Shown here: in pieces, positions 6,616 through 58,583 of the stretch
Layout of the letters: every line of letters begins with the position of its first letter
Position numbering within the stretch: the first letter of the stretch is position 1
Source: a virus
Lineage: Duplodnaviria > Caudoviricetes
Length of the DNA: 64,000 nucleotides
IMG/VR virus record: IMGVR_UViG_3300031998_000004
Direction: 5' to 3' (one strand)
Notes under the pieces: generated by a model
What the model was told of the DNA's origin: nothing
The model's input: the letters and a program-made list of their open reading frames with translations, nothing else
The model's database searches: none
Program-made: the position numbers and the translations under genes

Positions 6616-7173
6616 TTATTTACTACTCACCATCACTAGCGGAATAAACCAATGAACAGTCATATCAACAACAGTACAACTATCTGAATGAAATTTAATA
6701 TGTAAGTATCCAATATTGTCTGGAGACGGATCATATCCACGTTGACCTATTTTATGTCGGAGTACATACCCCTTGTATACATTAGAGAAGTATTCGGAAA
6801 GATTATTGTTAAATGATATAAAGAGTGGATCAGACTCAATCTCTAACTTGGATGACGATGGAAGATACCCGCGGAGAACATCGGCTATCTGAGTAGGGAT
6901 AGATTTAGTACAGTTTGTATTAACTTGAAGGTTCCCATAATTTTCATTAAACCTCTCAACCACATCTTTCACATCATCATACCATAGACATGATGTCTCA
7001 AAATTAGACTTCAACACATCCACTATAGGTTCCTCATTTAGAGTTGTTTTCTTTGCCTCCAGAAACCAAATACTACTATCACCGAAGACAAATAACATAT
7101 CATCATTGATAGGTTGAAGGAGGTATTTTAACTGTATTCCTTCTATATTTTGTGTAGAATCAAACAAACTCAT
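6616..7173 (-). CDS. hypothetical protein starting MSLFD
   Basis: 185-aa ORF carrying the leaderless version of the SLFD tag. Confidence 0.6.
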   Translation of the reverse strand: MSLFDSTQNIEGIQLKYLLQPINDDMLFVFGDSSIWFLEAKKTTLNEEPIVDVLKSNFETSCLWYDDVKDVVERFNENYGNLQVNTNCTKSIPTQIADVLRGYLPSSSKLEIESDPLFISFNNNLSEYFSNVYKGYVLRHKIGQRGYDPSPDNIGYLHIKFHSDSCTVVDMTVHWFIPLVMVSSK

Positions 7174-7248
7174 GTATAAAAATATTAGTTTTGTTTGAAA
7201 AATTTGTGTTTTGTTAATATTTTTTAATAGTAAATAAATGCATTTATA

Positions 7249-8304
7249 ATGAGTAAGAAAAACGATTACAGTAGTTTAGAAGGTCAAATTGGTGATCTTG
7301 GTGCAGAAGTTACACCGGTAGCATCAACAACATCACAAGATCTTGGGAAAATAAACAGACCTGAAATTTTTGGTGGAAAACCAGAATTAACACCAGAAGA
7401 AAAAGAAGAACTCAATAAATTTATAGAAAGGAATCGTAATAAATCAAAAGTAGAAGAATCAAATATCTTTGAAGGATGGATTCCTCTTGATCGAGAAGAA
7501 TTAGGTAAACGTTCAATATTCTATCCAGAAGACTGGGAGTTCTCTATTCGACCTGCAACGGTTCAAGCAATCAAGAATTGGACATCGGTTGATGAAGAGA
7601 ATCCTGAAGAACTCAATAAGGTATTTAATGAGATTATTCGTCTTTGTGTAAGAATAGTTGATGGCAAAGGAACTGTTCATACATGGCAGGAAGTAAATTC
7701 TTGGGATAGGTTCTGGCTTATTCTTAAAGTTCGCGAGTATACTTTTGTACACGGTGAAAGTAAAATTGAATACACTGATCAGTGTGAGAATTGTGATGAA
7801 GAATTAACATTTATTCTTGATTCTGCATCACTCACATATGAATTTCCTGATGATGATCTTATGAAATACTGGGATGGAAACAAATGGGTTATTGACCCAC
7901 GCGAGTATGACGTAGACGCGGATCCTATTACTCTTTGGACACCAAAACTTGGTAAGGACCAGGCAATTATTGATTGGGCTATTGCACGTGCAAGACAAGG
8001 AAAACGCGATATTGACGAGAACTTTATTAAGTTCTTGGTTTGGATGATCAGTAAGCCGTCACGCGATGCTGCTAACTTTGACTCTCAGGTTCGTCAGGCA
8101 CAGAATATTTATAAGGGTTGGAGTATTGATATGAATTCATTTATGAATGATGTTGTAAGAAATATCACTATCAATCCTTCGGAGAAACTCTCTGCCAAAT
8201 GTCCTCATTGTGGTGCCGAGGTCACCAGCCAGGTTCAGTTTCCAAACGGCGTTAGAGCTCTCTTCAAGACTGAATCGAAAGTTAAGAAGTTTGGATCCAG
8301 ATAA
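7249..8304 (+). CDS. Baseplate hub assembly protein, T4 gp26-like
   Basis: IRP...E, D..W..LK.RE, CENC and C-terminal CPHCG motifs; immediately followed by a gp51-like ORF. Confidence 0.6.
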   Translation: MSKKNDYSSLEGQIGDLGAEVTPVASTTSQDLGKINRPEIFGGKPELTPEEKEELNKFIERNRNKSKVEESNIFEGWIPLDREELGKRSIFYPEDWEFSIRPATVQAIKNWTSVDEENPEELNKVFNEIIRLCVRIVDGKGTVHTWQEVNSWDRFWLILKVREYTFVHGESKIEYTDQCENCDEELTFILDSASLTYEFPDDDLMKYWDGNKWVIDPREYDVDADPITLWTPKLGKDQAIIDWAIARARQGKRDIDENFIKFLVWMISKPSRDAANFDSQVRQAQNIYKGWSIDMNSFMNDVVRNITINPSEKLSAKCPHCGAEVTSQVQFPNGVRALFKTESKVKKFGSR

Positions 8305-8647
8305 TCACGAAGATCCCTTTAGATTATCTCCGGCATATTTTGAATATGACGTATTTGCATTATTCAAGATAAATATAGTTGGGTTGATTCAAATCAAAGC
8401 ATCACTTGCAAAAAACTTCCATATACAACCATCGGAAATAGATAATATGCCGATGTGGGAATATGAGATGTTTATTGATGAATTAAATAAGCAAGTCAAG
8501 GATGAGAATAAACGCCAGCAAGAAGAGATGGATAAATATCATGTAAATGATTACATGAAAAATATGAAAAATATGAATCCTTCTAATATGGCGAAGATGT
8601 CTCAACCAAAACTACCGGATCTTTCGAAAGGATTTAAAATGAAATGA
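8291..8647 (+). CDS. Baseplate hub assembly chaperone, T4 gp51-like (start uncertain: TTG at 8291 or frameshift)
   Basis: LAKNFHIQPSEIDNMPMWEYEMFIDEL matches the gp51 pattern (EIxxMxxWExxxY/F); no ATG upstream of the conserved core. Confidence 0.65.
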   Translation: MDPDNHEDPFRLSPAYFEYDVFALFKINIVGLIQIKASLAKNFHIQPSEIDNMPMWEYEMFIDELNKQVKDENKRQQEEMDKYHVNDYMKNMKNMNPSNMAKMSQPKLPDLSKGFKMK

Positions 8648-8648
8648 T

Positions 8649-8675
8649 AAAGGAACTCACAAGAGTTCCTTTTTT
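8649..8675 (+). terminator. Rho-independent terminator
   Basis: AAAGGAACTC-ACAA-GAGTTCCTTTTTT. Confidence 0.8.
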
Positions 8676-8707
8676 ATATTTATTGACTAGTATATGATTA
8701 TATATAT

Positions 8708-9523
8708 ATGAATACTGCCGGAAAACAGGGATGGACAACCACCCTAGAAGACGAAATAGATTATCAATTCATTCAGAGAGTTATTGGTGAGGTGACTCAG
8801 TCATGTGCCCTGCCTTTTGCATTACCTGCGGAACGTGTGACAGCTAACATCCTACTTGCTGCACAGTACTTCTGGTTAAATAGTGACTTCGCTGCAGAAG
8901 AGAGATACTATATGATTAAAAACTCGGACATATGTCGAGGTAATATGTTTAATAAGATAGTTCAACTCCCTGCACAAATCATTGGTGTGCATGGGTGTTA
9001 TAGGATTGATGACGGACTAAGATATGGTGTCATGGGAGACTTTTCTCTTGAGAGAATGATGCTTTCTACTTACTCTATGTTTGGTGGAGTAGGAACTGTG
9101 GGTGGGGGATTTGTTAATGGTACCACGCAGGGATACACTCTTTCTGATGTGGTTATGAGTATGTATGAAGTGGATACTTTTGAACAGAATCTTAATCCAA
9201 CTCTGACATATAACTACAATCAATTCTCACATAAACTCGTTCTTCTTGGCGATATTGGGTATAGTAATATTTTGATTTGTTGTAGTGTGAGATGTAGAAT
9301 CCAAGACCTCTATAACGACCCTTATTTCTTTAAGTATGTTGTTGCGCTATGTAAGAGAAATCTCAATACCATTTATGGAACATATGAATTTAAGTTGCCT
9401 GGTGGTGTTACAATCAACTATGACAAACTCAATGATCAGGCAGATAACGAGATTGAAGAAGTAAAAGAATACTTTGAGAATAACCGCGCGGTAGACTATT
9501 TCTTTATGCCAAATACGCTATAA
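8708..9523 (+). CDS. Neck/head-tail connector protein, T4 gp13-like
   Basis: C-terminal KLPGGVTINYD...A..EIEE; YNYNQFSHKL. Confidence 0.7.
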   Translation: MNTAGKQGWTTTLEDEIDYQFIQRVIGEVTQSCALPFALPAERVTANILLAAQYFWLNSDFAAEERYYMIKNSDICRGNMFNKIVQLPAQIIGVHGCYRIDDGLRYGVMGDFSLERMMLSTYSMFGGVGTVGGGFVNGTTQGYTLSDVVMSMYEVDTFEQNLNPTLTYNYNQFSHKLVLLGDIGYSNILICCSVRCRIQDLYNDPYFFKYVVALCKRNLNTIYGTYEFKLPGGVTINYDKLNDQADNEIEEVKEYFENNRAVDYFFMPNTL

Positions 9524-9553
9524 AAAGGAACTCAAACGAGTTCCTTTCTTTTT
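9522..9553. terminator. Bidirectional terminator between convergent genes
   Basis: AAAAAGGAACTC-AAAC-GAGTTCCTTTCTTTTT. Confidence 0.75.
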
Positions 9554-10014
9554 AATGTTATCTCTATCCTCTGTGGTATGAATGTGTTGACGTGAATAAT
9601 TATAAAGGTGTATGATTTATCTCGAAGTTTAACATTAACCGTCACATCCCCACCTTCTCGAATCTTCGTTTGTTTGAGACAAGAAGTAAATGTTTTTGAT
9701 AAGTTTTCTTCATTAAGAGACGGCACTACAAGACACATAAGGATGATATACTTGTAGATGTCATTAAGATTATAGATAGATCTTTGATTTAGAACATTAT
9801 TTATCTCGTCAAAATCTTTTTGAGATATCTTCATCGATCCATCATCGTTACATAGTAATCCCCGAAGAGTATCAACTATCTTTGTTTTAGAGAAGTTGAT
9901 TTTGAAGGCATCTCGCCAAGAGATATGTTTATGATTTGGATTGGTACAGTCCCAGAACTTGTACACCATCCCCACCCATGGGTCTTCGATTATATTTTCA
10001 GAGAACAAACTCAT
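9532..10014 (-). CDS. hypothetical protein starting MSLFS
   Basis: 160-aa ORF with an SLF tag. Confidence 0.55.
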   Translation of the reverse strand: MSLFSENIIEDPWVGMVYKFWDCTNPNHKHISWRDAFKINFSKTKIVDTLRGLLCNDDGSMKISQKDFDEINNVLNQRSIYNLNDIYKYIILMCLVVPSLNEENLSKTFTSCLKQTKIREGGDVTVNVKLRDKSYTFIIIHVNTFIPQRIEITLKRKELV

Positions 10015-10195
10015 CCTTCAACTCATCCTCCATCTCGTCTTGAGTACGCTCGAGTTCGCGTAGTGTTCTATATAATCTATTTTCCTGGCACCAAGTGCAG
10101 GTTCCGTGGTTCCGACAACTACAGTCTACCAGTTTTGCACCTTTGTACTGCCTACGCTTCTCCTTACCGGCTTCTATTGCTTTGTATAGTCCCAT
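9998..10195 (-). CDS. small basic Cys/His (Zn-binding) phage protein
   Basis: DxSCRNHGxCxWC motif. Confidence 0.6.
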   Translation of the reverse strand: MGLYKAIEAGKEKRRQYKGAKLVDCSCRNHGTCTWCQENRLYRTLRELERTQDEMEDELKDEFVL

Positions 10196-10225
10196 GTATA
10201 TAATTATTAAATTAGAAGGGAATCT

Positions 10226-10648
10226 TTAGAAATAGATTCCCCTCTCAATCTGTAGTCTCTCCAGGGAGTCACTACTGTGTATCCCATTTCTCATCTCGCT
10301 CTCACCAATTTCCTTCCGGATATGATCTTTGATCTTATCTGTCTCGGCAAACATCTTTGAAGACATCGATCCGTCTTTGACAAATAAGATAGCAGTGCTG
10401 GGGGCACTAGACATATACTTACATAGGTCCTTAAAGAAATCCTCTTTTTTATGTGGTTCGTAGAGTCGTTTGGCTTCCTCAGGGAGGAGTTGTTTAGTTC
10501 TTATCCGATCAACACGCCATCCTCGTTTAGCAAATTCATCTATGACGAAAGCCGTGTCTTCAAGGAATCCGGGTTTCACAATAACAAATATATTCTGTCT
10601 ATTGTCATCAACAAGTGATGGTCCAAGTGATTCGATTAATGATTTCAT
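10226..10648 (-). CDS. ndk: Nucleoside diphosphate kinase with MKSLIE-SL leader
   Basis: FVIVKP, YEPHKKEDFFKDL..YMSS.P, RNGIHSSDS (catalytic His), ERGIYF. Confidence 0.88.
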   Translation of the reverse strand: MKSLIESLGPSLVDDNRQNIFVIVKPGFLEDTAFVIDEFAKRGWRVDRIRTKQLLPEEAKRLYEPHKKEDFFKDLCKYMSSAPSTAILFVKDGSMSSKMFAETDKIKDHIRKEIGESEMRNGIHSSDSLERLQIERGIYF

Positions 10649-13946: not shown

Positions 13947-13949
13947 ATA

Positions 13950-14487: not shown

Positions 14488-15966
14488 TTACTTTATACTT
14501 CTCCATGCACGGAACTGTGCGCGGATTGCACGCTCGCGTTCGTCAGCAATCTGTTCAAGGCCTTCGTAGATGTTCTTCACCTGAGGAACTACATTGAAAT
14601 CGATTGACTCCCAGAATCTCTGAATAGCACCTTCGTTATTGAAGTTATAGAGTTTTGCGCGTCTGTTGATTGATTCCTTCATTTCATCACTTGCGGACTC
14701 ATAAAGAGGACGTACTGCCTCGGGCATCTCCTGGATGAACTTAGGAGCGTCTTCGTTAACTGACTTTGCTGATTTAAAGATAGGTTTGCTCACTTCAATT
14801 CCTTCAAGAAGTTTGAGTGTATCTTCAATTGAAGAAAGACTGTTCTTCTTGGACTCGGTAACTGCATTAGCGATCTGTTCCTCTACCTTAGGTGCATAGT
14901 GCTCATTGAGCCATGCCTGTGATGCAGGAGCGTACTCTTCAACGATCCAGCTCTGGATACCCTGAGCGAACTCTGTGGTTGCCCAACGCTCAACCTCACC
15001 ACCGAACTCTTCAACGACCCATGTCTGGATCTTAGGTGCGGCTTCGTTAAGGAGATAGTCTTTGAATGCATCCATTGCTTCATCAACCATTTCTCCCTTA
15101 TACTCAGGAGCAAACTCTTCGGTGACCCAACCAGCAATCTTAGGAGCGAACTCATTGACACACCAGTTCTGGATTCCTTCACATAATTGTTCTAAATCAA
15201 ATTTAGGAGCCTTCTCGAGGGCCTCGTTAAGTTTCTTATTTTCATCCTCGAGGGTCTGTACTCTTTCCTCGAGTTTTTCTAACTTTTCAAGTTTCTCGAG
15301 AATCTCATTCATTTCCATATTGTTTTCTTCGGGTTTATTTTCTATATTTGTTTCTTGTTCTTTTTCTGTTACGTAGAAGATGTTTGATTCGGGGATCTGT
15401 GTATAGACATCATCACCGACCTCAGCACGACCCTCAGCACTCATCTTGTTCTCAAAATCAACCATCTGACTCTCGTTAAGGTGAAGTCTTGCCTGAGAAA
15501 AACCAGGAGTCCCCACAAGGTCATATGTAGATATTCTTTCAAGAGTGACTGCACCAGTCTTAGGATCTACATTACCCATAGCGCGGCTAGAGATAAACAA
15601 TGGAAGTCCACCTTCAACGATTGACTGAGCAATCTTTCCCTTAGGAGTATTGAGAAGTGTGATTGTGCCACTCACTACACCATTCTCGTCAATATTAATA
15701 TCAGTAATTTTGTGTGAGATGTTTTCAAGTGTGATGTTCATATACTGAGGATGCTCGAGCTCGCCAGGGATTCCACCATCCTGTCTGATTCTCCCTTGCA
15801 TCTCTTCAACCATCTTCTTATAGTTAGAAGTCTCGTATACACGGGAATTATTATTGCGTACACCACAAACACCGAATGTACCACTCAATGTCATCAAACC
15901 ATTTTCTTTAGAAATGGTCATTGACTTGGCGTCATTTAAGGTTTCATAAATGTAACTTTGTTTCAT
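14488..15966 (-). CDS. Prohead protease (T4 gp21-like) fused to a scaffold-like C-terminal region
   Basis: N.N.RVY, GELEHP, TPKGKI, ISSRAMG and YDLVGTPGF motifs; then coiled coil and repeated IQxWxxEEF/Y units. Confidence 0.88.
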   Translation of the reverse strand: MKQSYIYETLNDAKSMTISKENGLMTLSGTFGVCGVRNNNSRVYETSNYKKMVEEMQGRIRQDGGIPGELEHPQYMNITLENISHKITDINIDENGVVSGTITLLNTPKGKIAQSIVEGGLPLFISSRAMGNVDPKTGAVTLERISTYDLVGTPGFSQARLHLNESQMVDFENKMSAEGRAEVGDDVYTQIPESNIFYVTEKEQETNIENKPEENNMEMNEILEKLEKLEKLEERVQTLEDENKKLNEALEKAPKFDLEQLCEGIQNWCVNEFAPKIAGWVTEEFAPEYKGEMVDEAMDAFKDYLLNEAAPKIQTWVVEEFGGEVERWATTEFAQGIQSWIVEEYAPASQAWLNEHYAPKVEEQIANAVTESKKNSLSSIEDTLKLLEGIEVSKPIFKSAKSVNEDAPKFIQEMPEAVRPLYESASDEMKESINRRAKLYNFNNEGAIQRFWESIDFNVVPQVKNIYEGLEQIADERERAIRAQFRAWRSIK

Positions 15967-20250: not shown

Positions 20251-20251
20251 G

Positions 20252-23557: not shown

Positions 23558-24130
23558 ATGAGCATATTTAATACATCACCCACACAAGGACTCAAGGTAA
23601 GAGAAATATATGAGATAGACGCAAAAGAATCTCGAGCATTGGTTTCTCAAACAACCACATCGGTATTATATAATTACTTCGAACCAACATATGAAAGAGC
23701 ATTTAATTTGTGCTGGGTGACAAACGCTGGATATCATTTCTGGGGTGAATACAAAAATCAACATTGGGAAGGACTTGGATATAATGAATTTCTGAGTAAA
23801 GCTTTGAGAGCATTCGGTGAGTGTGAGATTGGAGGACTATCTAACCTCAATTCTCAACTTGAGTCTCTCTGTGACGAACCGGTGTTCCGAGTTGATATAA
23901 TACATGATTTTATGAAGTCTACATCGTCGGGACAAATAATAAATTATCCAATGAAGGGATCGAAGAAGCACCCCATCATACTCACCTTCCCTTGGATAGA
24001 TAGTAATCTTGTTGAACGACACCCATGGGCAATACTTTACGTGTATAACAACCAAAAAGAAACGATACACGTTGCTGCAGTTCCACTCATTCCAAAAAAG
24101 GGCATGGAGGATGTGTTTAACGCGCTATAA
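23558..24130 (+). CDS. hypothetical protein starting MSIFN
   Basis: 190-aa ORF preceded by ATATTTAT. Confidence 0.6.
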   Translation: MSIFNTSPTQGLKVREIYEIDAKESRALVSQTTTSVLYNYFEPTYERAFNLCWVTNAGYHFWGEYKNQHWEGLGYNEFLSKALRAFGECEIGGLSNLNSQLESLCDEPVFRVDIIHDFMKSTSSGQIINYPMKGSKKHPIILTFPWIDSNLVERHPWAILYVYNNQKETIHVAAVPLIPKKGMEDVFNAL

Positions 24131-25011: not shown

Positions 25012-26655
25012 TTAGAATCCAAAATTCTTTAATTTTTTATCTGCAGTCTCTATAGCATCTTTAAGTCTCTTTGTTGCGCCTTCGAGATTTCTGTAATCAT
25101 AATCCTCTGGTTTTGTTTTATAACTATTTCCAAAGCATGATAAGTAGGCATCCATAAAACATTTGAAAATATACATCAATCCGTTATCTCCATAGTATGC
25201 GGGGCCACTATCGTGTTTCCATGATTTATAGCTGGGATTACTCCTCTTTTCATCTCTTAACCATGTAAAGAATCTTTCAACATCATACTTATTAAATGCT
25301 TTGGGGTCTTTGGTAATAGCACGAGTGAATTTGAATACTCTTGTATTGATTTGTTCGTATTCATCAATGACCTTATCGTATCCTTCAGCTTCGTCATTCT
25401 TTTTTCTCTCAAGACGGATTTGAGCAACCATGTCCTTATATCTCTTCATGTTTGCAGCAGCAATAGCTTTATACTGTTCGACATCACCAGGATTAATAAC
25501 ACCAGCTTGAGCATCCGCCCTATTTTTTCTGATATTCCAACGCTCGTCGTTACCAGTACCGGTGTCCTTACCAGTATTTAATACTACAACAGTATAGCCA
25601 CTTCCGTAATTAAGAATCCGGTCGCGAGCTTCAGACTTACCATAGTAGCGTGTATCTATCTTATTTGAATAACTTCCCTTATGGGGAATATTTACCCAAA
25701 CAATCGACCAACCACTTCCACGAAGTTTAGCCTGTTCACCAAATCCACCAATAAACTCACCAAGGTCTTCGTTATAAACCAAGAATATATCGCCACCATC
25801 AGCGTCTCCGGAACTGTATGCGCTATAGAATGCCTTACCAAGAGTCTTTTTATCTTTCTCATCACTCATGTCATAAACATCAATATCATCATTAGTGATT
25901 TTGTCAAGAAGTCTTCCCGAGCCCGAGAAACCACTGGATCTAGAGTGATTTCTGATTAAGTTATCTAATTTATTATACTTCTGTTTGGAATCATCTTCCC
26001 ATGACCATTCCTTATAAGGGTACTTCTTAAGCTGTGCAGCAAGACGTTGCAACCACTGATTGTTAAGTGTTTCATTTACAACACCTTCAACCACATCAGC
26101 CTCGATTTCGTCCTCTCCACAGAAGACTTTCTTTATAACATGGACCTTTTCTTTCAACTGGTCTACTGTATACTTCTTTCCGTTTCCGCTCCAATATATA
26201 TTACCAAACACAGTATCTATCCCTTTACAATCCTTCAACTTCTTACAGTTAGTTACAGAGAGGTCTCCTTTTATGAGTTCGGGAATACCAACAAGGGAAA
26301 CGAGAGCCGGACATTGATTGATAGTGAGACTCCCATCGAATATAGCGAATTTCTCAAGGAAAGAACCTTCAAATCCTGTGAGTTTTGGACAGTTCTCAAT
26401 AATCAACTTACCATGGAAGTCTTTAATATTGATATTAAGAGTTTCTGATTGTACCCCACTTATAATCAACTTTCCATTAACTCTACAGCTACCATCTTTG
26501 AAGAACACAGTATTAAAGGAACCCTTACATGTATCCAAGAACATCTTTGTTGTGTCCTTTGCAATTCCTTTCTCGAGTCTATCTCCGCCTTCAAAATCAA
26601 ACATCCCTTCGGCAAGAGCTACTATATTTCGCGATATTTCTTTTAACGATCTCAT
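25012..26655 (-). CDS. Two-domain protein with MRSLKE...AE-GMFD leader and LRR-like repeats
   Basis: L.I.NCPKL, L.I.QCPAL.SL.G.P and L.V.NCKKL repeats; internal VVNE linker. Confidence 0.6.
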   Translation of the reverse strand: MRSLKEISRNIVALAEGMFDFEGGDRLEKGIAKDTTKMFLDTCKGSFNTVFFKDGSCRVNGKLIISGVQSETLNINIKDFHGKLIIENCPKLTGFEGSFLEKFAIFDGSLTINQCPALVSLVGIPELIKGDLSVTNCKKLKDCKGIDTVFGNIYWSGNGKKYTVDQLKEKVHVIKKVFCGEDEIEADVVEGVVNETLNNQWLQRLAAQLKKYPYKEWSWEDDSKQKYNKLDNLIRNHSRSSGFSGSGRLLDKITNDDIDVYDMSDEKDKKTLGKAFYSAYSSGDADGGDIFLVYNEDLGEFIGGFGEQAKLRGSGWSIVWVNIPHKGSYSNKIDTRYYGKSEARDRILNYGSGYTVVVLNTGKDTGTGNDERWNIRKNRADAQAGVINPGDVEQYKAIAAANMKRYKDMVAQIRLERKKNDEAEGYDKVIDEYEQINTRVFKFTRAITKDPKAFNKYDVERFFTWLRDEKRSNPSYKSWKHDSGPAYYGDNGLMYIFKCFMDAYLSCFGNSYKTKPEDYDYRNLEGATKRLKDAIETADKKLKNFGF

Positions 26656-37708: not shown

Positions 37709-38620
37709 TTAGAAATCAAACAAACTCATCTCAATACTTCCATCAGGGTTAAGTGTTTGATAACCAATAGCTTCCAAGATTCGATTGAACGGATCAATCA
37801 TATATTGACGGAACATCTCATCACGAGAAACAGGCGCATACTGATCAGCCCACTTCGGATACTTGCCTCTCTGGAATGCAAAGTATTGAACATCGCTTTT
37901 CGGACTAGCTCCTAGTGGCCTGTACATATAAATCTTAAACTTACTCCCACCATACATTGGTTCACCAGGAAGATTGTATTTCTGTCTTAACCAGTTATAT
38001 GTGCCAAGAGCTCGTGGGCCGGGTGGGCATTTGGGATTCACTTTCAATCCGCTAGGGTCAGAGTCATTCGCTATATATTTGGTGTATCCATTGACTCCAA
38101 TACTTGCACAGATATCCTCTAGAGGAGCTTCGAAAAATTTCTTCTTCTCTTCCTGCATCTTGATGTTAAGTTTTTGAGTCATGAATTGTTCGTCTTCCTC
38201 TTCAAGCAAATAACGAACCATCCGCTTCAGACCTTCGCGAGCTGCCTTAGGAACACTAGATTTGATCATTTCGAGACCTTTGACTTTCAGTGGAAGATTA
38301 TCTGTGTCGAAGGCCTTGCCGTCTTTCCAGAGAAGGAGTTGCGCGTAACGTTTCTTTGTATCTAATCTAACTTCTTGATAATTAAGGGTTTCCAGTTCAA
38401 AATTTTGAACGCTTTTTGCATGCCGCCCTTTATAATATTCGTTCATGAACTCTCTATTATGAGCATCAAGAAATTCTGTATTAAGGCGAACAAGAAAATC
38501 TCTTATTTGTTCAATAGACCATTTTTCAACTCCTTCAATTGTTTGAATAAGATTATTATAACACAAGTATGCGCTATCTGTGTCACCTCCAGTTATAGTA
38601 ACTAATTGTTTTTCTTGCAT
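37709..38620 (-). CDS. DNA polymerase family B, C-terminal part (palm motif C and thumb)
   Basis: GGDTDSAY, FELE, KKRYA, KGLE; ends with the clamp-binding-like SLFDF. Confidence 0.9.
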   Translation of the reverse strand: MQEKQLVTITGGDTDSAYLCYNNLIQTIEGVEKWSIEQIRDFLVRLNTEFLDAHNREFMNEYYKGRHAKSVQNFELETLNYQEVRLDTKKRYAQLLLWKDGKAFDTDNLPLKVKGLEMIKSSVPKAAREGLKRMVRYLLEEEDEQFMTQKLNIKMQEEKKKFFEAPLEDICASIGVNGYTKYIANDSDPSGLKVNPKCPPGPRALGTYNWLRQKYNLPGEPMYGGSKFKIYMYRPLGASPKSDVQYFAFQRGKYPKWADQYAPVSRDEMFRQYMIDPFNRILEAIGYQTLNPDGSIEMSLFDF

Positions 38621-38632
38621 GTTAAAATATAT

Positions 38633-39763
38633 TTAAATATCAAGATTAATTTTTAATGTATTTTTTATGAAATCTTTAATATTAATTCCGTTTTTATAAT
38701 CAATTTCCCATACAATAATTGTATTAATATTTCTGAGTTCCTTTAATTTTTTTATTTTATACTCATCATTATCCCATATCTCTTTGGCGGTAATTTTTAA
38801 ATTAAATGGATTTGGATGATCTTCTTTTTTATAAACCCGAGGATCTGCGTGAAATGTAGTTCCGTTGAATTCTATGCATAAATTTAATTCATCAATAAAG
38901 TAATCTAAAAATACATATTTATCTTTTAAATTAATACCAAATTCTCTATTTTTTGTTGCATAATATGTTGTGTATTTTGGAGATAAATATTTATCTAATT
39001 CATTAAAAAATATTTGTGAAATTTCTGAATAATATTGAGGCGCTTTGTTAATTTTCTCCATATACATGTTCATTCCGACTTCTTCTCCATACCTTTTAAT
39101 ATAAGCTTCAATCGTTTGTGATTTTGCTTTGTTAATACTATTCGCTTTTTCTTCTCCATAAGTTTTCACCATATATTCCCAAGATTTTGTTTCTGATTGC
39201 CTTTCACAATACTTATTCCACATTTTTCTTCCTTCTTCCTCTCCATGACGATTAATAAGATTTTTTAATGTAACAGCCCGCGATTTATTGTATTCTTTGA
39301 ACTGCTTTTCTGTCCACCCATATTTTTCTTTTTTATATTCAAATGTATTGGTTTTAGATTGTTTTTTACAATATTCATCCCAAATTTTATTTCCTTTTTC
39401 TTCTCCATACTTTTCAATCATATGTTTCTGAGTCATCGCATATTTTTCACGAGTTCTTAAATATACATCTTCTGGAATATCAAATGCATATTTTGTAGAT
39501 TCACACATTGTACAAAATGAACGTATCGGAATTTTTATATTTGGGAATTTTTTAAGTAGGCATTTTTGACATATTTGTAATGGATATGTGATGTCTTCTA
39601 CAATTTTAGAAGTTAAATAACTTTTACCTTTAATATGTAATTTATTATACTTATCAACATATACACATGTATTATCATATATTATATCTTGACCACAACA
39701 TTTGCATTTACTCCTTACAATATTATTATCATTTAATATTTTTGTGTATTCCTGTATCTCCAT
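38633..39763 (-). mobile_element. Free-standing homing-endonuclease-like gene (Vsr/DUF559-type nuclease with KYGEE helical repeats) inserted in polB
   Basis: N-terminal CxxC pairs, repeated KYGEEKG..W..YC.KQ, C-terminal LDYF...IEFNG..FH.DP...W..D..K...IVWE; very AT-rich. Confidence 0.8.
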
Positions 39764-39852
39764 AAATCAATATATTATTTAAGTTAATAATAATTAATTC
39801 GTAGATGAATATTTAAATATTTTTATTTTTGTATTAAACCAGTATCTCCATA

Positions 39853-41826
39853 TCATGACATTTTCTTAACAGTTATTCCTAATTTTTTATGTAACTCTTT
39901 AGCGTCGTACCAGTTATTTTGAAACCATTGTGGTATATGATCCATCATAATATGTATGATATTTCTAGCTTCTGCTGTTATACAATTTGCGAGATTCATA
40001 TGGAACCAGAAAAAAGCAATATGAGAGCTGCCCCCGTAAAGTGAGTTCATAATGTACTTCACTGCTTGTTCATATGAACTTAAATATTCTATCTCATCAT
40101 GTAGTTTAATAGAAAACTCTTTTAATTCATCGCACATCTTCAAAAGATCTCCAGTGTTCTCAATATGGTACCCAATCTCATCAACTCCTTTCACTACGTC
40201 ATCTGGATACTTCTTATTATCGACTACTTTACCATCAAGAATATGTTTAGTGTCATTCATCACAGTAGCATCCATCTTCTTATATAGATACTTTGCTCGG
40301 TTTCTGTTTTGAGCAAGCTGAGTTTGAATAATCCTAAAAGCGTAATCCTTATCGTTCTTAAACACACATCCCGTTACACTGACAAAGTAATTAGGATCTT
40401 TCCGATATAGATCGAGTTTCTCGTCATTTAAAAACTTTCCGATATAATCTCCCAACTCAGGTTTCTCAAGAGAACCTTTATTTTTATATACTTCTGGACC
40501 AACAACAATATATTTTACCGGATCGGCTCGATACGGATCTAGTTTGGCATCATCCCAATATGCACCTACGTAGTTTTCCACACTGATATTAGTTGTACGG
40601 ATGGTTGATGGATATAGAGAAGCAAAGTCATTACAACAAACAAACTTATGTTTACCTGGTGTTGGTATCCGGACATAAGCCCCTAACAATCTCCCTCTAT
40701 CTACCTGTTTCTCCTCAGGAACCACTTTAATACCGTTTTTATAGAAATAATCCCAGAACATTGCTTCAGACAACGCAATCTTACTAAAACACTTACCTAT
40801 CATCTCGTTACAGTAAAGCGCCTGAGCATAGATGTTTTGCATCGTCTTAAACTTCTTATCAAGTAACTGTACAAGAAGACTATCAATACCATTATAGAAT
40901 ACATATCGGTCATAGTCTCCTCTATATAAGTCATCCAAAGAACCGTCATACTCAATCTTATGAGAATGAATCATCTCCCCAGCGACAAAATCCAAACTCA
41001 TGCTTTCTTTAATCGGCATCACCACATAGTCGAAGTTTTCTATAACATCCATCATATCGAGCACAAGTGTATGACATGGTATAGATAGTCTCACCTTCTC
41101 CTGTCTCTGATCGGTGTAGTTCTTCGATGTCAATGTCTTATTCATCGAACACATCCCAAACCAGATATTAGGAAAATAGAACTTACAACGGTTCTGTATA
41201 TACTGCCAGTCAAAGAGAATTGAGTTCCATCCAGCAAGGACTGGAACAATAGCAACAATCTTTTCTAGGAAATACCTAAGCATTGACTCTTCACTAGGAA
41301 AGACCACATACTTAATCTTTGGCATCGGAAGTCCCAGTTCGTGGAAGTATTCAAGGTTATTTATATACTCTTCAAACCTACTCTGAAGGAGAGCATCCCC
41401 TCCGGGACCAAGGGGACGAGTTCCAAGGATCATCACATTACATTCAGGAGACACAATAGAAATGGTTGTGATGGGGAACTTCGCTTGTGTGGGATCAGGG
41501 AACTCTTCTACATCATCTGGAGAGAGCCTAGTGAGTGTCTCAATATCAAATGTATACAGTTTTGGATTAGTTTTTCCACGCAAGAGCTTCTGGTATTGCT
41601 CTGGTAGTTCGGTTATGTAATTGCGAATATCAAACCTGTGCGGACGTTCGGTCCAACGGACATCACATTTGCTTCCGTCCCAATTAGTGAACTTGCCTGT
41701 TGGTGTTTTGTAATAGGATTTGAATCTTTCAACGTTGAAATTAAGAACTTGTTTTGCGCCGTTTTCCTTGATATAGGAGATGGAAAGATTCTTTTTGTTA
41801 GAATTATAGTTGTAGTCGAGTATCAT
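39853..41826 (-). CDS. DNA polymerase family B, N-terminal part (3'-5' exonuclease, motifs A and B)
   Basis: FDIET, GWNS..FD, YN..D, DFASLYPS, KYIMNSLYG. Confidence 0.92.
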   Translation of the reverse strand: MILDYNYNSNKKNLSISYIKENGAKQVLNFNVERFKSYYKTPTGKFTNWDGSKCDVRWTERPHRFDIRNYITELPEQYQKLLRGKTNPKLYTFDIETLTRLSPDDVEEFPDPTQAKFPITTISIVSPECNVMILGTRPLGPGGDALLQSRFEEYINNLEYFHELGLPMPKIKYVVFPSEESMLRYFLEKIVAIVPVLAGWNSILFDWQYIQNRCKFYFPNIWFGMCSMNKTLTSKNYTDQRQEKVRLSIPCHTLVLDMMDVIENFDYVVMPIKESMSLDFVAGEMIHSHKIEYDGSLDDLYRGDYDRYVFYNGIDSLLVQLLDKKFKTMQNIYAQALYCNEMIGKCFSKIALSEAMFWDYFYKNGIKVVPEEKQVDRGRLLGAYVRIPTPGKHKFVCCNDFASLYPSTIRTTNISVENYVGAYWDDAKLDPYRADPVKYIVVGPEVYKNKGSLEKPELGDYIGKFLNDEKLDLYRKDPNYFVSVTGCVFKNDKDYAFRIIQTQLAQNRNRAKYLYKKMDATVMNDTKHILDGKVVDNKKYPDDVVKGVDEIGYHIENTGDLLKMCDELKEFSIKLHDEIEYLSSYEQAVKYIMNSLYGGSSHIAFFWFHMNLANCITAEARNIIHIMMDHIPQWFQNNWYDAKELHKKLGITVKKMS

Positions 41827-49581: not shown

Positions 49582-50021
49582 TAGTCCTCCTCAGCTACTG
49601 GCGTACCATCGGGATAGACCGCTTCTATCCAATCCCCTTCCGCGTATGCGTGATCCCATATAGGAGTCTTATCGCGCATGTCCTTTGGGAGAGTTATTGT
49701 TTTTTCTTCCCCATCTACCTTCATGTGAAACTTATCCCACATCTCAAGAAGAACCCCATATTTATAAAGATCGACGTATGCTACTTTAAGATCGTGTTTA
49801 ATTGCTTCCAATCGTTCATCAATCCACTCCTCTGGGGATCCTTCATAGTCCGGGTCCATAAACTTCTGTGGCTCGGTCATATACGCGAGTTTATAAAGAG
49901 CATTCTCTGCTTCTTCCATACCTTTCTTTGTTTCATCAATCGCGTCTTCAAGCTCTCCGCGAGTCTTAAATGACTCACCATAAAAACTATAAGGAGCTAG
50001 TACGTGCATCTCTATACTCAT
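49578..50021 (-). CDS. hypothetical protein
   Basis: ATGA-coupled ORF. Confidence 0.6.
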   Translation of the reverse strand: MSIEMHVLAPYSFYGESFKTRGELEDAIDETKKGMEEAENALYKLAYMTEPQKFMDPDYEGSPEEWIDERLEAIKHDLKVAYVDLYKYGVLLEMWDKFHMKVDGEEKTITLPKDMRDKTPIWDHAYAEGDWIEAVYPDGTPVAEEDY

Positions 50022-50404
50022 AATCCGAAAAATTTATTTAATATAATATTGAATAGATTCTGGTCATCGTAGTACATACAAAAAGTAGAGCCGATATCTT
50101 CGCGTACCCCATCCTTCTCTTGCCAAAAATCTACTTCGATAAACGGATCTTCCATCTCCGTCTTAACATCTTTCATCACCCCTTCACCGTACACCTCTAC
50201 ACAAGAGATAACATGGATGGTCTGTCCCGGTTCATCATGTCTTTGTCCGTTAACTACTACAACACTACCCGGAGTGTGAACTTCTCTTTCTACTCGCCAG
50301 GCAAGTTTCTCCGCATCTTTGACAAAATCGTCTTCTGCCAGTCTCCCTTCTATAAATTTAAGGAAGTCTTCTTTTGTTGGTCTTACTGTTACTTGTTCAT
50401 CCAT
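50018..50404 (-). CDS. hypothetical protein
   Basis: Coupled ORF. Confidence 0.6.
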   Translation of the reverse strand: MDEQVTVRPTKEDFLKFIEGRLAEDDFVKDAEKLAWRVEREVHTPGSVVVVNGQRHDEPGQTIHVISCVEVYGEGVMKDVKTEMEDPFIEVDFWQEKDGVREDIGSTFCMYYDDQNLFNIILNKFFGL

Positions 50405-50405
50405 A

Positions 50406-50708
50406 TTACTTCGGGAAATATTGTTTATATTCGAGTTTCATATGTCCGTAGACCTTATCGGAAAACTCCTTTCTCCACTCACTATCTCCTATCTTATCAA
50501 AGAATCTCTGGCTGTAATCAATATAACTCTCTACCATAGCATAGAACCTGCTATTGTGTAAAGCTTCTGTTGCTTCCTCTATACTATCAAATACTGATCT
50601 ACCATTATCACTTACAAAGAGTTTGTCATCAATAAATACCCTCCAAATGGTTGGAGTCCAATAACTTGTTGTGTTGCCATCTCTGGCCTGTTTCATGTTA
50701 AATTCCAT
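50406..50708 (-). CDS. hypothetical protein
   Basis: 100-aa ORF. Confidence 0.55.
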   Translation of the reverse strand: MEFNMKQARDGNTTSYWTPTIWRVFIDDKLFVSDNGRSVFDSIEEATEALHNSRFYAMVESYIDYSQRFFDKIGDSEWRKEFSDKVYGHMKLEYKQYFPK

Positions 50709-54163: not shown

Positions 54164-54368
54164 ACATTCGCTTTGACTGTTCTATAGCATCTGTCATTGT
54201 TCGAACAGTATCGCAATTTGACCAAATTAAAATAGCTCCAAAAAATATGAGGTCTTTTTCTGTTAGCATAGCTCCTATTTTTAGTTTATATTTAATTATC
54301 AAATTTCTTCGTAATCTTTAATCTTCGAATTCTGGAGGAAAAGATTCATTTATCATATTAAATATTTT

Positions 54369-54962: not shown

Positions 54963-55330
54963 GCCTGTCCCTCCTCGTTAAGCCAATCGTATAATTCTTG
55001 ACTTTCGTATATGGTGTCAAGATCATTATCTGAAAGTATAGTACTTAATAGATTCTCGTGTGTTGACTTATGTGTCATAATCAAGTCTTTTAGTTCGTTA
55101 AGTCCATCCTTAGAAATGGGTTCAAACCAACTCCCGTCCTTGAGTCTCACACCATAACGATAACTAGAATTGGAACGATCCCAAATCATGATAATATCGT
55201 TAACGTTAATAACTAATGTACTATCCTGTCCTCCGAGTCCATCAAACCCATCTTCTATCTCGACCCAAGGCCAATTTACTCTTTTGATATACTTCTTTCT
55301 CATATAATATAGTTTATTCTGTGTCTCCAA
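54959..55330 (-). CDS. hypothetical protein
   Basis: 123-aa ORF in the operon. Confidence 0.5.
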   Translation of the reverse strand: METQNKLYYMRKKYIKRVNWPWVEIEDGFDGLGGQDSTLVINVNDIIMIWDRSNSSYRYGVRLKDGSWFEPISKDGLNELKDLIMTHKSTHENLLSTILSDNDLDTIYESQELYDWLNEEGQA

Positions 55331-55928
55331 TTATCAATTCATGTGCGTATGGAAGCCCTTCAATCCATCTCAAGAACTCTCCCCAGTCCTCTTTCAACTT
55401 ATGTCCACGTCTCTGAAAGTATATAGTCTGAAGTTGTTTGTAGTTAGTTGAGCACCTCTCCCACATCTCAAGTCCGGCAGGACAGTTACTTACAACTCTC
55501 ATCCATGCTTCGTACTGATCTTCTGGAGTTCCTGAATCACAAACGATATTATAATCTGTAATTAGTTTTTTCATTTGGAGAACAGATACTGCAGTGACAT
55601 ACTTATTACAACATTTGGTGAAATCCATCTTGGTCAAGCGATGCATCTTCGACATGGAAGTGACTATATCCAAAAAGTGATAACGCTGCAATTCTGGAGA
55701 GATATACTGCGGATACTTGAGGTCAAATGAGACTCGGATTCCTGTTAGGAAATTATCGTGGCATTTCACAATACCATTTTTGCTTGCCTGGACTAATTTC
55801 TTTGCTCTTTCGAATGACTTCTGAAAATCTTCTTCGGAATAGTCAGAGAGCTCAAGTCGCATAGCATTACGGCACGCTATAATCGATTCTTTGAGGTCAT
55901 AAACTTTCGTATTTCGAATTTCTAGCAT
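55314..55928 (-). CDS. ThyX-like (flavin-dependent thymidylate synthase fold) protein
   Basis: H..FL..I.V.F, ELQRYH.....S.S, NY..L..I..QR..H...EW layout; non-canonical RHRxxS motif. Confidence 0.5.
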   Translation of the reverse strand: MLEIRNTKVYDLKESIIACRNAMRLELSDYSEEDFQKSFERAKKLVQASKNGIVKCHDNFLTGIRVSFDLKYPQYISPELQRYHFLDIVTSMSKMHRLTKMDFTKCCNKYVTAVSVLQMKKLITDYNIVCDSGTPEDQYEAWMRVVSNCPAGLEMWERCSTNYKQLQTIYFQRRGHKLKEDWGEFLRWIEGLPYAHELIIGDTE

Positions 55929-55977
55929 AGGCCTATATAATTTATCATATTTTGGATTACTTGTGATTTAAACGAAT

Positions 55978-56781
55978 TTAAACGCATTTCTTGTCGTTCC
56001 AAATCCTGATATGGATTCGGTCGGAATATGACCATCCGTTGGCGAGTGCTGCTTCTGCTGTCTCAAGACACCTACCGGCTATCTGTTCCTGTGTAACTCC
56101 TTCAGGCATCAACCAAGTGTTTTTGTTGGGATTGTTTCTCTGCCAATATTTAATTTCGTTGGTATCACCAAGATTAACAAATTTAGATATTTTGGAGTAT
56201 ATATCCTGTATCTCATCAATACACTCAGGACCACTATAGACAAACTTAAACTGATAAGGAACGCCGCTTGTAATTACATTAAAGAGGTTCTTATAATTGA
56301 TTCTCAATTCATCATGTCTCTTTGCTTGTTCTTCTGTAAGGAATTTATGTGCTGTGTCCACACTGGTTGCGAGTTTTGGAGATACACTATAAAGAGAAAT
56401 CTTAAACCCTTTTGTCAGTGGACCAAAAACAGGGAATGTTCCGTTTGTCTCAATAGTTACGATCCAATCATTTTTAATCTGGAATATATCGGTCAAAAAA
56501 TCCTTTAATCCCTCTCTCTGTAGAAACGGCTCACCACCAGTAATAACAATATGTGTGGTGCGGGGATGTTCTTTTGAAATCTTTATAAAAGCATCAATCA
56601 AGTCTTGCTCGTTTGAGTAAATTGGTTTCTCTGGGTGGAAAGAACTGTACGCGGTATCACAAATAGAATCCTTAAATACACATCTAAGATTACAGCCTGT
56701 GGTTCTTACGAAGATTGAAGGTACTCCCATGTACCTTCCTTCACCCTGAATTGAATGAAATAACTCTATGATATTCAACAT
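55978..56781 (-). CDS. queE: 7-carboxy-7-deazaguanine synthase (radical SAM)
   Basis: E.F.SIQGEG...G.PS.FVR..GCNLRC...CDT, ITGGEP, IETNG, SVSPK, R.H..IW. Confidence 0.9.
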   Translation of the reverse strand: MLNIIELFHSIQGEGRYMGVPSIFVRTTGCNLRCVFKDSICDTAYSSFHPEKPIYSNEQDLIDAFIKISKEHPRTTHIVITGGEPFLQREGLKDFLTDIFQIKNDWIVTIETNGTFPVFGPLTKGFKISLYSVSPKLATSVDTAHKFLTEEQAKRHDELRINYKNLFNVITSGVPYQFKFVYSGPECIDEIQDIYSKISKFVNLGDTNEIKYWQRNNPNKNTWLMPEGVTQEQIAGRCLETAEAALANGWSYSDRIHIRIWNDKKCV

Positions 56782-56782
56782 A

Positions 56783-57376
56783 TTACTTAAGTTTAATTTG
56801 CTGTTTAACGGAAGGATTAGTAATGTATTTGCCAGTACTAATAAAATCCCTCAATGTCTGCGACCAATCTCTCTTAACTCCCTCCGAGAATACTATTTCG
56901 TCTTCCCACTGGTCTAACCAGTTAATATCTTCATCAAACTGATCACACCTGGCCATACCAGTGACCGTCTCGTTATACTCTACTCCGATACAACGAATTG
57001 CACCCTCACCATTCTCAAACTGAGTATTGTCAAGAATCCTATTAATGTAATGCATGATGAAGATACTTAACATCTCTGCACTAGGGTTAAATGGAATAAG
57101 GATGTACCTGTCGTTGAACTTTTTGAAGAACTCAACATACTCAGGATCGTCCTTTGTACAAATCAGGGCGCAGTGGTCCATAGAATCTATCCAAGAGCCA
57201 ATAGTATTTTTCATTAATCCAAAGTCCATCAACATCTGTGCATTATCAAGCTGACGACCTTCAAAGAACACATCAATCACGGCACTATGACCATGATGTG
57301 AATGAGAACAGCGATAAGAACTACATGATCTAACAATATGAGAACTTTCACAACGGTAACGTTTTCTGATTATCAT
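56783..57376 (-). CDS. queD: 6-carboxy-5,6,7,8-tetrahydropterin synthase
   Basis: H.V...C...HGHS, MDFG.MK, DH, NPSAE, ET motifs. Confidence 0.88.
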   Translation of the reverse strand: MIIRKRYRCESSHIVRSCSSYRCSHSHHGHSAVIDVFFEGRQLDNAQMLMDFGLMKNTIGSWIDSMDHCALICTKDDPEYVEFFKKFNDRYILIPFNPSAEMLSIFIMHYINRILDNTQFENGEGAIRCIGVEYNETVTGMARCDQFDEDINWLDQWEDEIVFSEGVKRDWSQTLRDFISTGKYITNPSVKQQIKLK

Positions 57377-57402
57377 AACATAAATATATTTGTAAAAATA
57401 TA

Positions 57403-57610
57403 TTAAATAATGTCTTTAACTTTATTTATCAATATATCTATGTCACAAGTAAATACTTCCATCCAATTGAGATTATGATCTTTGGCCCATTGTCTTTTTA
57501 TGGGATCTCTTTCAGTCCATGTTTTTATTTTATCATGATAATTTTTCTTATATAAACGAATTTGCACTAAATTGACCACGTTTAAGAGTTTTTATATCAG
57601 GTATAATCAT
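57403..57610 (-). pseudogene. Degraded homing endonuclease remnant
   Basis: Short start fragment MIIPDIKTLKRGQFSANSFI*, then an out-of-frame YKKNYHDKIKTWTERDPIKRQWAKDHNLNWMEVF..., typical of the C-terminus of Vsr/DUF559-type endonucleases. Confidence 0.6.
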
Positions 57611-57714
57611 ATAAATAAAAAATGTAACGTTCAATGTATCAATTGGTTATATTAAAATAATAATTTAAAATTTAGTGTCTTAAAATATTTGAAGTCCTTT
57701 TGTTATTTATATTC

Positions 57715-58152
57715 ATGAGTATATTTGATAATGACATAATAGAAAGACCCCTCCACGTAAGAGACGGATTTGACATTCGTATAGAGGAGTTTAATCGTCA
57801 TTGTTTTTATACATGGGTGTGGGAAAAGAAGGGAATTCATTGTTCTGGCGGTCATCCTGTTGGTGTTACATTACAGACCCTAACGGATGCCGTAACAGAC
57901 ACTTTGGGTGACCTCTCTGTGGATAACTTTGAAAAATGGATCACTGAAGCTCAGATTGGAGGACCCAAAATTGGAGCCGCAAAACACGCCATAAAATACT
58001 TCAAGAAACTCATTAAGAGAGAATATTGGAGGAGTCTGGGAGCCTTTGTAGAAAACGGAATCTTTGAATTTTACGTACGCGATGATGCGTTTGATGCCTG
58101 GGCTCTCCGGAGCGCTCTCCCTATTATGAGAATAATATTTTACAGAAAGTAA
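57715..58152 (+). CDS. hypothetical protein starting MSIFD
   Basis: ATG at 57715 preceded by TTATTTAT. Confidence 0.6.
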   Translation: MSIFDNDIIERPLHVRDGFDIRIEEFNRHCFYTWVWEKKGIHCSGGHPVGVTLQTLTDAVTDTLGDLSVDNFEKWITEAQIGGPKIGAAKHAIKYFKKLIKREYWRSLGAFVENGIFEFYVRDDAFDAWALRSALPIMRIIFYRK

Positions 58153-58583
58153 TGGGAATATTTGATGTAAAAGAAAATATCAAACGAGAGTTTACTGTTG
58201 GAGACGTGTATGATGTGGATGTGGTAGATCTCGGAATGTCAGGAACCCTCGATGATAACGCTCGTCTGGTTTTCAAAGGATATAGTCTTGATGAAGTGCT
58301 AGGCGAGATGAAACAAACCAAACTCAAGACATTTGAAAGGTTCTTTAAGAAACCCACTTGGATATGGATAAGTGATTTTAAGTTCATTACCCTAACAGGT
58401 TGGAGACTAAAACGGTGGCTAGGGAAGTGGGTGAAAAAGAGATATATCACTGATCCGGATAATCTTCGTACCGACGTTCTCGGTGCTATTAAAGGAGTAT
58501 ATGTGTATAACGGTGAGATTATAGAATGGGCCACCGAGGCTTGTTTTTGGTTTAGGTTTTGTAAAAAAGAAGCCGATTTCTAA
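58152..58583 (+). CDS. hypothetical protein starting MGIFD
   Basis: TAATG-coupled to the upstream gene. Confidence 0.6.
   Translation: MGIFDVKENIKREFTVGDVYDVDVVDLGMSGTLDDNARLVFKGYSLDEVLGEMKQTKLKTFERFFKKPTWIWISDFKFITLTGWRLKRWLGKWVKKRYITDPDNLRTDVLGAIKGVYVYNGEIIEWATEACFWFRFCKKEADF

Follow-up and report, generated by a model that had tools for sequence, protein, structure and literature searches.

An SLFD-type N-terminal peptide on unrelated small proteins of an uncultured T4-like phage: a probable portable docking motif whose partner may be the sliding clamp

What might read a short peptide that a phage places, time and again, at the very start of proteins which otherwise have nothing in common? 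This question is raised by the 64,000-nucleotide stretch of DNA analyzed here (the window), which belongs to the Caudoviricetes record IMGVR_UViG_3300031998_000004 of IMG/VR and in which five open reading frames (ORFs) begin, directly after the start methionine, with a tag of the SLFD type. A sequence-only reading of the window had regarded SLFD as a signal in its own right, perhaps docking onto the ejection machinery or onto the phage sliding clamp. The results described below give good support to [SG]-[LI]-F-[DNS]-x(1-3)-[DN]-[IL] being a portable, intrinsically disordered docking motif which fronts many unrelated small phage proteins. We infer that it is read by one partner, and the sliding clamp is put forward as a tentative candidate.

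The window has a G+C content of about 36% (AT-rich) and is densely coding, and Shine-Dalgarno sequences are nearly absent from its genes. Its recognizable genes include a split gp43-type polymerase, a gp21-type prohead protease, T4-type baseplate genes and a DNA ligase, and a megablast search of one window gene against cultured phages gave no match; this is an uncultured T4-like phage without a close cultured relative. Counts in the window refer to our own gene call (78 genes, 20,278 residues). As relatives, we employed five whole IMG/VR contigs (G001–G005), two of them approximately complete, which were reached via the protease gene and whose identity to the window by this route was 84% for G001, 54% for G002 and G003, and 49% for G004 and G005.

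The five ORFs were found at the positions and with the starts (MSLFDS, MSLFSENIIE, MSIFN, MSIFDNDIIE and MGIFD) that the sequence-only reading had reported:

6616..7173, minus strand: leaderless tagged protein of 185 residues, starting MSLFDSTQNIE
9532..10014, minus strand: leaderless tagged protein of 160 residues, starting MSLFSENIIE, which closes the head-gene block
23558..24130, plus strand: leaderless tagged protein of 190 residues, starting MSIFNTSPTQ
57715..58152, plus strand: leaderless tagged protein of 145 residues, starting MSIFDNDIIE
58152..58583, plus strand: leaderless tagged protein of 143 residues, starting MGIFDVKENIK

None of them bears an N-terminal leader of about ten residues ending in [LI]xE, as seen in the T4 capsid-targeting sequence (CTS). 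Mis-called starts hiding such leaders were rejected, since the reading frame upstream was closed by a stop or had no start codon followed by a leader-like peptide. The source gene call for 9532-10014 starts at Met16 (145 residues) and drops the conserved tag, so automatic annotation under-counts tags of this kind.

The motif [SG][LI]F[DNS] occurred 14 times in the window, with 10 of the 14 occurrences lying within the first 11 residues of a protein. Five were located at residue 2, four at residue 7 behind MK[ST]LxE, one at residue 11 behind MKSLSQYIYE and one at the end of the polymerase, and three were found elsewhere. With regard to starts of the form M[SG][LI]F[DNS], five were observed, whereas the rate inside the proteins predicts 0.017 at residue 2 (Poisson P(≥5) of about 1e-11); when residues 2–31 were shuffled 2000 times, five tag starts were never reached. 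Against these shuffled controls, run on the window, the N-terminal motif was strongly enriched, and about 14% of the window genes (about one gene in seven) carried the tag. Within the tag, Ser was encoded by both AGY and TCN codons and Leu by both TTR and CTN. This variation of codon families indicates conservation and selection at the level of the protein and not of the DNA, and DNA-level conservation of the tag was rejected as an explanation on these grounds.

Conservation among homologs was measured for the families of 9532-10014 and 6616-7173 only, the other three proteins being orphans: 23558-24130 lacked homologs both in the five relatives and in IMG/VR, 57715-58152 was a singleton among 5.8 billion proteins and 58152-58583 had no relative in IMG/VR, with no Pfam or PHROG family found for any of them. 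The 9532 family comprised 30 sequences, down to 48% identity, with the consensus MS[LI]F[SD]xN[IL][IV]E; M1, S2, F4 and E10 were conserved in at least 90%, and mean conservation was 0.79 in the tag versus 0.74 in the body. The 18 sequences of the 6616 family shared 19–43% identity with the window protein; M1 and I10 were their only invariant alignment columns, and F4 and N9 were conserved in at least 90%. The tag was kept as well as the body, or better, in both leaderless families which have homologs.

In AlphaFold models, the mean predicted local distance difference test score (pLDDT) was 79 for the 9532 protein and 90.5 for the 6616 protein, with values below 50 for residues 1–10 and 1–4, respectively. 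The tag is thus predicted in these two models to be exposed and flexible and to lie beyond the folded domain, as expected for a clamp-binding peptide, and such conservation in a segment predicted to be disordered is what characterizes short linear binding motifs. Similarity in all-against-all BLAST comparisons was confined to the N-terminal tag, the five bodies being mutually unrelated, and paralogy of the five proteins was rejected. Fold searches with the 6616 model gave no clear match (best Z of 4.0), the weak top matches of this family being gp25/TssE-like baseplate proteins (Z ≤4.0) which fell under the noise level stated for the tool; the 9532 model had no match above noise in a fold search of the PDB, and the ESM Atlas yielded nothing usable for 6616-7173. 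Among 58 tagged proteins from the six genomes, one had a Pfam domain (DUF285) and no family was found for the other 57, nor was there any recognizable DNA or nucleic-acid enzyme.

A further class of proteins carries the same tag behind a leader. In the following list, as elsewhere in the text, a slash marks the junction between leader and tag:

4934..5962, minus strand: leadered tagged protein, MKSLSQYIYE/GLFNVDKNI, with a 10-residue T4-CTS-like leader followed by the tag
5959..6567, minus strand: leadered tagged protein, MKSLYE/SLFDKDLM
25012..26655, minus strand: conserved 547-residue protein with a long leader and the tag, MRSLKEISRNIVALAE/GMFDFEGG
61957-62559, 62559-63122 and 63122-63676, minus strand: three tandem leadered tagged genes, each starting MK[ST]LxE/SLFD[KT][DN][LI]
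14488..15966, minus strand: gp21-type prohead protease (Pfam Peptidase_S77, 31.2 bits for a cut-off of 27; PHROG 207)

The gp21-type protease is the presumed enzyme cutting after [LIV]xE, and its own N-terminus keeps [IV][YF]E/TL in all relatives. Orthologs of 25012-26655 start MKSLINVLNE/GLFD in G001 and MEKFSKILE/SLFATDD in G003. Within the tandem 61957-63676, a Pfam domain was detected in 62559-63122 only (DUF285), and the bodies were barely similar beyond the tag. The tagged genes at 62559-63676 (minus strand) and those of G001 at 50381-50641 and 66458-67027 have a cassette-like look, in which the tag and a C-terminal ..EFEKL[RK].. are shared around divergent middles. Some G001 proteins carry two consecutive tags, MKSLVE/SLFDSKTQMTE/SLFDNDL, with xxE before each of them.

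Several observations indicate that the leader is an add-on. Both of the leaderless G002 proteins tested were paralogs of leadered ones, with alignments beginning exactly at the tag; the body of 4934-5962, which has both leader and tag, was homologous to the leaderless MSILD protein of G004; and same-strand arrays mixed both types of genes (4934, 5959 and 6616 in the window; 81.6–86.3 kb in G004). Taken together, N-terminal enrichment, conservation in homologs and the same junction with or without a leader among paralogs and homologs bear out the earlier proposal, in which SLFD was seen as an independent signal. This tag would be placed at the N-terminus by two routes, either straight after the start Met, as in the five ORFs, or behind a T4-type capsid-targeting leader ending in [LIV]xE, which would be removed by the gp21-type prohead protease. 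As the methionine aminopeptidase rule and the presence of that protease suggest, Met removal and gp21-type cleavage would expose the same N-terminal Ser, in line with what the sequence-only reading had claimed. The leader might then be an optional module deciding on a ride in the capsid, with the tag as the constant part acting in the infected cell.

A leader of the capsid-targeting type was also observed on the nucleoside diphosphate kinase (NDK; PF00334, 68 bits) encoded at 10226-10648 (minus strand) inside the head-gene block, which starts MKSLIE... and whose orthologs in all five relatives retain the leader (e.g., MKQLSAYLLE/NTKD in G005). This suggests that the leadered NDK may be packaged into the phage head.

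The tag pattern of G001, the closest relative, mirrored that of the window, with five leaderless starts (P 3e-10) in addition to leadered ones. In G002, mainly a full 10-residue T4-like leader was found, MKNIKEYINE/SLFDSEDDLLDK, together with four leaderless genes. The tag was spelled S[IL]F[SGA] in G003 and SILD after MK[ST]LYE in G004 and G005, with one leaderless MSILD in G004. The extended spelling of the tag was therefore lineage-specific, and leadered and leaderless members agreed with each other within a lineage. The leaderless class is real, yet its expansion is mainly in the window's own lineage.

With regard to the partner, the sliding clamp is our best guess because the tag resembles two experimentally defined clamp-binding peptides of T4/RB69 and the end of the phage's own polymerase; we consider it possible, though somewhat short of probable, that the tag is read by the hydrophobic pocket of this DNA clamp. 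The first of these peptides is the start of gp62, the clasp subunit in T4's clamp loader, which reads MSLFKDDIQLNE; 42 gp62 homologs start (M)SLF[DE]DD[VI]Q, and RB69 gp62 starts MNLFDDDV. Leu3 and Phe4 of gp62 form a PIP box which is the principal contact with the clamp (bioRxiv 10.1101/2023.10.18.562948). When a 9-residue tag profile, built from 56 distinct tags, was scanned over 265 T4 ORFs (49,833 positions), residue 2 of gp62 was the top N-terminal match, at 11.0 bits, and the Alt junction was the third. About three of the 49,833 positions scored as high as gp62 anywhere in T4, and the chance of such a score for any N-terminus was around 0.016. The tags ([SG][LI]F[DN]x[DN][IL], residues 2–9) present a Leu/Ile-Phe core flanked by acidic residues at the extreme terminus, as clamp-binding peptides do. 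That one of the five ORFs is itself the phage gp62 was not supported: no tag carrier matched gp62 in PHROG or Pfam, PF16790 was absent from the relatives, and the two models had no significant fold match in the PDB, which includes the gp62 structures 3U5Z and 3U60.

The other resemblance concerns the DNA polymerase, which is encoded in two pieces:

37709..38620, minus strand: C-terminal piece of a split family B (gp43-type) DNA polymerase (PHROG 262), ending IEMSLFDF, with the last six codons at 37712-37729
39853..41826, minus strand: N-terminal piece of the split DNA polymerase (PHROG 262/2062), corresponding in alignments to the beginning of the undivided polymerases of G002–G005

The best annotated match of the C-terminal piece was gp43B, from the split DNA polymerase of Acinetobacter phage Ac42. 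A 376-residue ORF at 38633-39763 (PHROG 22677) splits the polymerase (37709-41826) into two genes, a split which is common to the window and G001, the polymerase being in one piece in G002–G005.

The sequence-only reading had likened the polymerase end, MSLFDF, to the clamp-binding tail of T4/RB69 gp43. The likeness as such stood (KKASLFDMFDF in RB69, EKASLDFLFG in T4), and a polymerase of the same genome does carry the motif at its C-terminus (IEMSLFDF). However, the Ser of the tail was not conserved: the tails of the relatives read IQMNLFDF, IQMSLF, IQMDLFDELF and QQMDLFAGLF(G), with QMxLF as the conserved core. The bacterial beta-clamp-binding motif is QL[SD]LF, as Dalrymple et al. reportedly described in 2001. 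The relatives' tails fit this motif (IQM[SND]LF), the window's own tail being IEMSLF, whereas the tags lack its Gln and hydrophobic residue before [SD]-L-F, since Met or x-Glu precedes their [SG][LI]F. In T4 and RB69, the gp43 tails bind a shared pocket of the gp45 clamp (PMC6212786). Clamp-binding peptides of this kind are also present in gp33, gp55 and the ligase loop of T4.

Other C-terminal tails in the clade also resemble those of clamp clients, namely ..IFEGI in a FEN-like nuclease, ..NKFFGL or ..KNIFGA in proteins of 115–128 residues (compared with ..TLDFLL in T4 gp33) and ..VLFEAARSLD in a sigma-like protein (compared with ..SLDFLYEAND in T4 gp55). In the window, the second group is represented by a 128-residue protein encoded at 50018-50404 (minus strand), with ..ILNKFFGL at its end; ..NKIFGV or ..KNIFGA takes this place in its relatives, and the likeness is to the tail by which T4 gp33 binds the clamp. 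At 140917-142984 of G005, the gp33-tail-like protein directly follows the sigma-like protein (434 residues, PHROG 351) whose tail recalls T4 gp55. These tails hint at what could be T4-style clamp-dependent late transcription in a clade without a detectable clamp gene.

A number of observations weigh against the clamp as the reader of the tag. The tagged carriers are not recognizable DNA enzymes, unlike known clamp tool-belts, the single Pfam hit among 58 being DUF285, and a tagged share of about 14% of the window genes is a large number of clients for a single clamp. Gln, which is part of the QMxLF of the polymerase tail, is missing from the tag; the Ser position of that tail varies across relatives (S, N, S, D, D, D); and no co-variation of tag and tail was seen over four lineages, the tag being SILD in G004 and G005 while the polymerase tail stays DLFAGLF. 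Mature T4 Alt, a capsid protein without a known link to the clamp, also matches the tag. Moreover, the gp62 match was noticed post hoc, and gp62 relatives tolerate one to three extra residues (MAV-, MAL-, MM-) before SLF, whereas either Met or the Glu of [LIV]xE invariably stands immediately before the tag. Finally, profile searches with Pfam, PHROG and NCBIfam revealed no gp45, gp44, gp62, DnaN or PCNA in the five relatives (PF09116, PF02916, phrog_223, PF16790, TIGR00663, TIGR00590), with weak P-loop matches only for phrog_168 in G001–G005, and no clamp or loader was found in the window either.

Additional searches for a clamp and its loader gave a similar result. Using T4 gp44, gp45 and gp62 as queries, tblastn found nothing in the clade, and when conserved proteins of around 250 residues were compared with PDB sequences, nothing clamp-like was retrieved; in such a search, 8708-9523 resembled the neck protein gp13. 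When ten core proteins of the relatives and another ten proteins of the window were scanned against PHROG, a single-stranded DNA-binding protein (SSB), a sigma factor, a kinase, an RNA ligase and QueD/QueE were identified, and no clamp. The phage SSB (PHROG 224; 136025-137227 in G005, with orthologs in G002, G003 and G004) ends ..[DT][DG]LPF, a hub tail of the bacterial SSB type, which suggests that it may recruit partners of the host replisome. The tag was rejected for the SSB itself, the N-terminus of which is a different conserved motif. Since the SSB has a bacterial-type end, ..DLPF, and the polymerase a QMxLF tail, the phage may use accessories of the host replisome, and the host beta clamp is then the obvious candidate reader; the clamp read by the tag may therefore be that of the host. 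A more specific version of this proposal, which we consider doubtful, is that the clade lost, or never had, its clamp and loader, and that a gp62-like N-terminal PIP peptide became a universal handle on about one-seventh of its genes, by which interchangeable small effectors, some of them preloaded in the capsid and injected with the DNA, would be delivered onto the clamp, probably the host beta clamp, from the start of infection.

The same tag could, instead, be a T4 Alt-type handle for the capsid or for ejection which, alone or with a short leader, ties proteins to the prohead core or the ejection path, in which case the leaderless proteins would be packaged too. In every leadered protein, the tag stands directly after [LIVMFYA]xE, which is the T4 gp21 cleavage rule, and the Peptidase_S77 protease is present. 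T4 Alt is cut at ITE-6 (PMC5694885), losing six residues, and the sequence after this cut, which we checked, starts LFDEDTT. Together, the short leader and the tag, MK[ST]LxESLFD, form a 10-mer with Asp10, of the same length as the T4 CTS MKTYQEFIAE, in which the targeting signal lies in residues 4 and 7 and the cutting signal in residues 8 and 10, Asp10 blocking cutting and not targeting (PMC9026906). Two leaderless starts, MSLFSENIIE and MSIFDNDIIE, match the T4 CTS pattern at F4, I8 and E10; the gene at 9532-10014 overlaps the upstream gene in the head-gene block and adjoins the CTS-bearing NDK; and both the mixed arrays and the gp25/TssE-like fold matches of the 6616 family would suit such a role. 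However, those fold matches lie under the stated noise level, the downstream Glu is not general, being absent from the 6616 family and from 58152-58583, and the retained N-terminus of Alt has no known function. In addition, a cut before the tag leaves it on the mature protein, whereas the T4 CTS is discarded, and relatives put a complete 10-residue CTS before the tag (MKNIKEYINE/SLFD...), which is thus unneeded as a CTS there. On balance, we regard a capsid handle as unlikely.

We would say the same of a single partner that is neither clamp nor capsid, be it a host protease or adaptor for which the tag is an N-terminal degron setting protein lifetime, a chaperone or RNA polymerase. Any of these would be compatible with a short acidic-hydrophobic motif, conserved and disordered, on cargo proteins unrelated to each other; small cargo without assigned function is typical of accessory or anti-host genes; the strict placement at a new N-terminus suits a reader of N-termini; and the clamp was not found in the searches of the five relatives. 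Yet no candidate partner was identified, and it would be by coincidence that the tag specifically resembles Alt, gp62 and the gp43 tail. Ser and Gly, moreover, are not classical residues of bacterial N-degrons, the established N-end rule residues in bacteria being Leu, Phe, Trp and Tyr. That there is no signal at all, the shared start reflecting common descent, recombination of gene cassettes at a conserved 5′ end or a nucleotide-level start element, appears highly improbable. Tandem arrays with conserved gene ends and starts (62559-63676) and a conserved AT-rich motif just upstream of several starts would fit this explanation, and the T4 internal-protein loci are thought to shuffle via their conserved CTS (PMC3012670). 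Against it stand the free synonymous variation, including two Ser codon families, the bodies without detectable similarity, a tag which is the best-conserved part of a family diverged to 19–43% identity, and a lineage-specific extended spelling common to leadered and leaderless members.

Some further features of the window were also observed. A ATTATTTAT-like motif lies about 10 nt upstream of the ATG, ending 2–4 nt before it, at 5959, 6616, 13950, 17354, 17959, 23558, 56783 and 57715, i.e., ahead of structural genes as well as tagged ones; it might serve as an element for the start of translation or as a promoter from which a near-leaderless mRNA is made. Homologs of the 6616 family with mis-called upstream extensions read ..IFLY/MSLFD (here the slash marks the true start), and therefore the same upstream DNA motif is conserved there. 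A QueE-like radical SAM gene (55978-56781) and a QueD-like gene (56783-57376), both on the minus strand, are directly beside the leaderless tagged genes 57715-58583 and suggest a 7-deazaguanine (preQ0) pathway that likely serves DNA modification. At 3704-4266 (minus strand), two consecutive small genes end ..ENLI at their stop codons, and the 16-nt TTGAAAATTTGATTTA is present before each following start codon; a repeated junction element therefore overlaps the gene ends.

Should the tag indeed deliver proteins onto the clamp, LFDEDTT, the N-terminus that T4 Alt keeps after maturation, would likewise dock onto the clamp, which would provide a testable function for it in an easily handled model phage. 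Phages would then address many unrelated proteins to one hub by a peptide of about eight residues, with the same address serving both those synthesized inside the cell and those which travel in the capsid. A common testable property, namely one partner, and with it a route to their roles, would be gained for dozens of proteins without assigned function. What is new here comprises the gp62 match with its support in the literature, a revised view of the polymerase tail, now read as QMxLF, the apparent lack of a phage clamp and loader, and the conservation and predicted disorder of the tag in leaderless families.

Among known systems, the gp62 arm is alike in residues 2–8, right after Met: T4 has MSLFKDDI and its relatives MSLF[DE]DD[VI], compared with MS[LI]FDxD[IL][IV] in the tags. 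In the gp62 arm as in the tags (e.g., MSIFDNDII and E/SLFDKDLV), a Leu-Phe core is followed by an acidic run and by Ile/Val four residues past the Phe. This contrasts with the setting of the peptide, gp62 being one dedicated protein with a conserved fold, whereas the tag is found on dozens of unrelated proteins, some of them behind a capsid leader. The RB69 and T4 gp43 tails, ASLFDMFDF and SLDFLFG, share with the tail of the window the extreme C-terminus of a gp43-type polymerase; the tags differ from them in being N-terminal and in lacking the Gln-Met of the polymerase-tail core in this clade. That core, QM[SND]LF, is nearer to the bacterial beta-clamp motif QL[SD]LF than to the LDFLF of T4.

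The T4 internal proteins and their CTS offer a second comparison, in that unrelated cargo shares only its N-terminus, the leader ends in [LI]xE and a gp21-type protease is present. The CTS MKTYQEFIAE resembles the 10-residue leaders of the relatives (MKNIKEYINE), and the cut of T4 Alt at ITE-6, followed by LFDEDTT, resembles MKSLxE/SLFDxD here. However, the T4 internal proteins have nothing in common past the cut; here, by contrast, another conserved peptide comes after it and five ORFs are leaderless, and the ADP-ribosyltransferase domain of Alt was present in no tag carrier. By analogy, the cargo-loading peptides of encapsulins are also short, conserved and terminal, are carried by cargo proteins unrelated to each other and are recognized by a single partner belonging to a capsid-like shell; they are usually C-terminal, uncleaved and of a different sequence.

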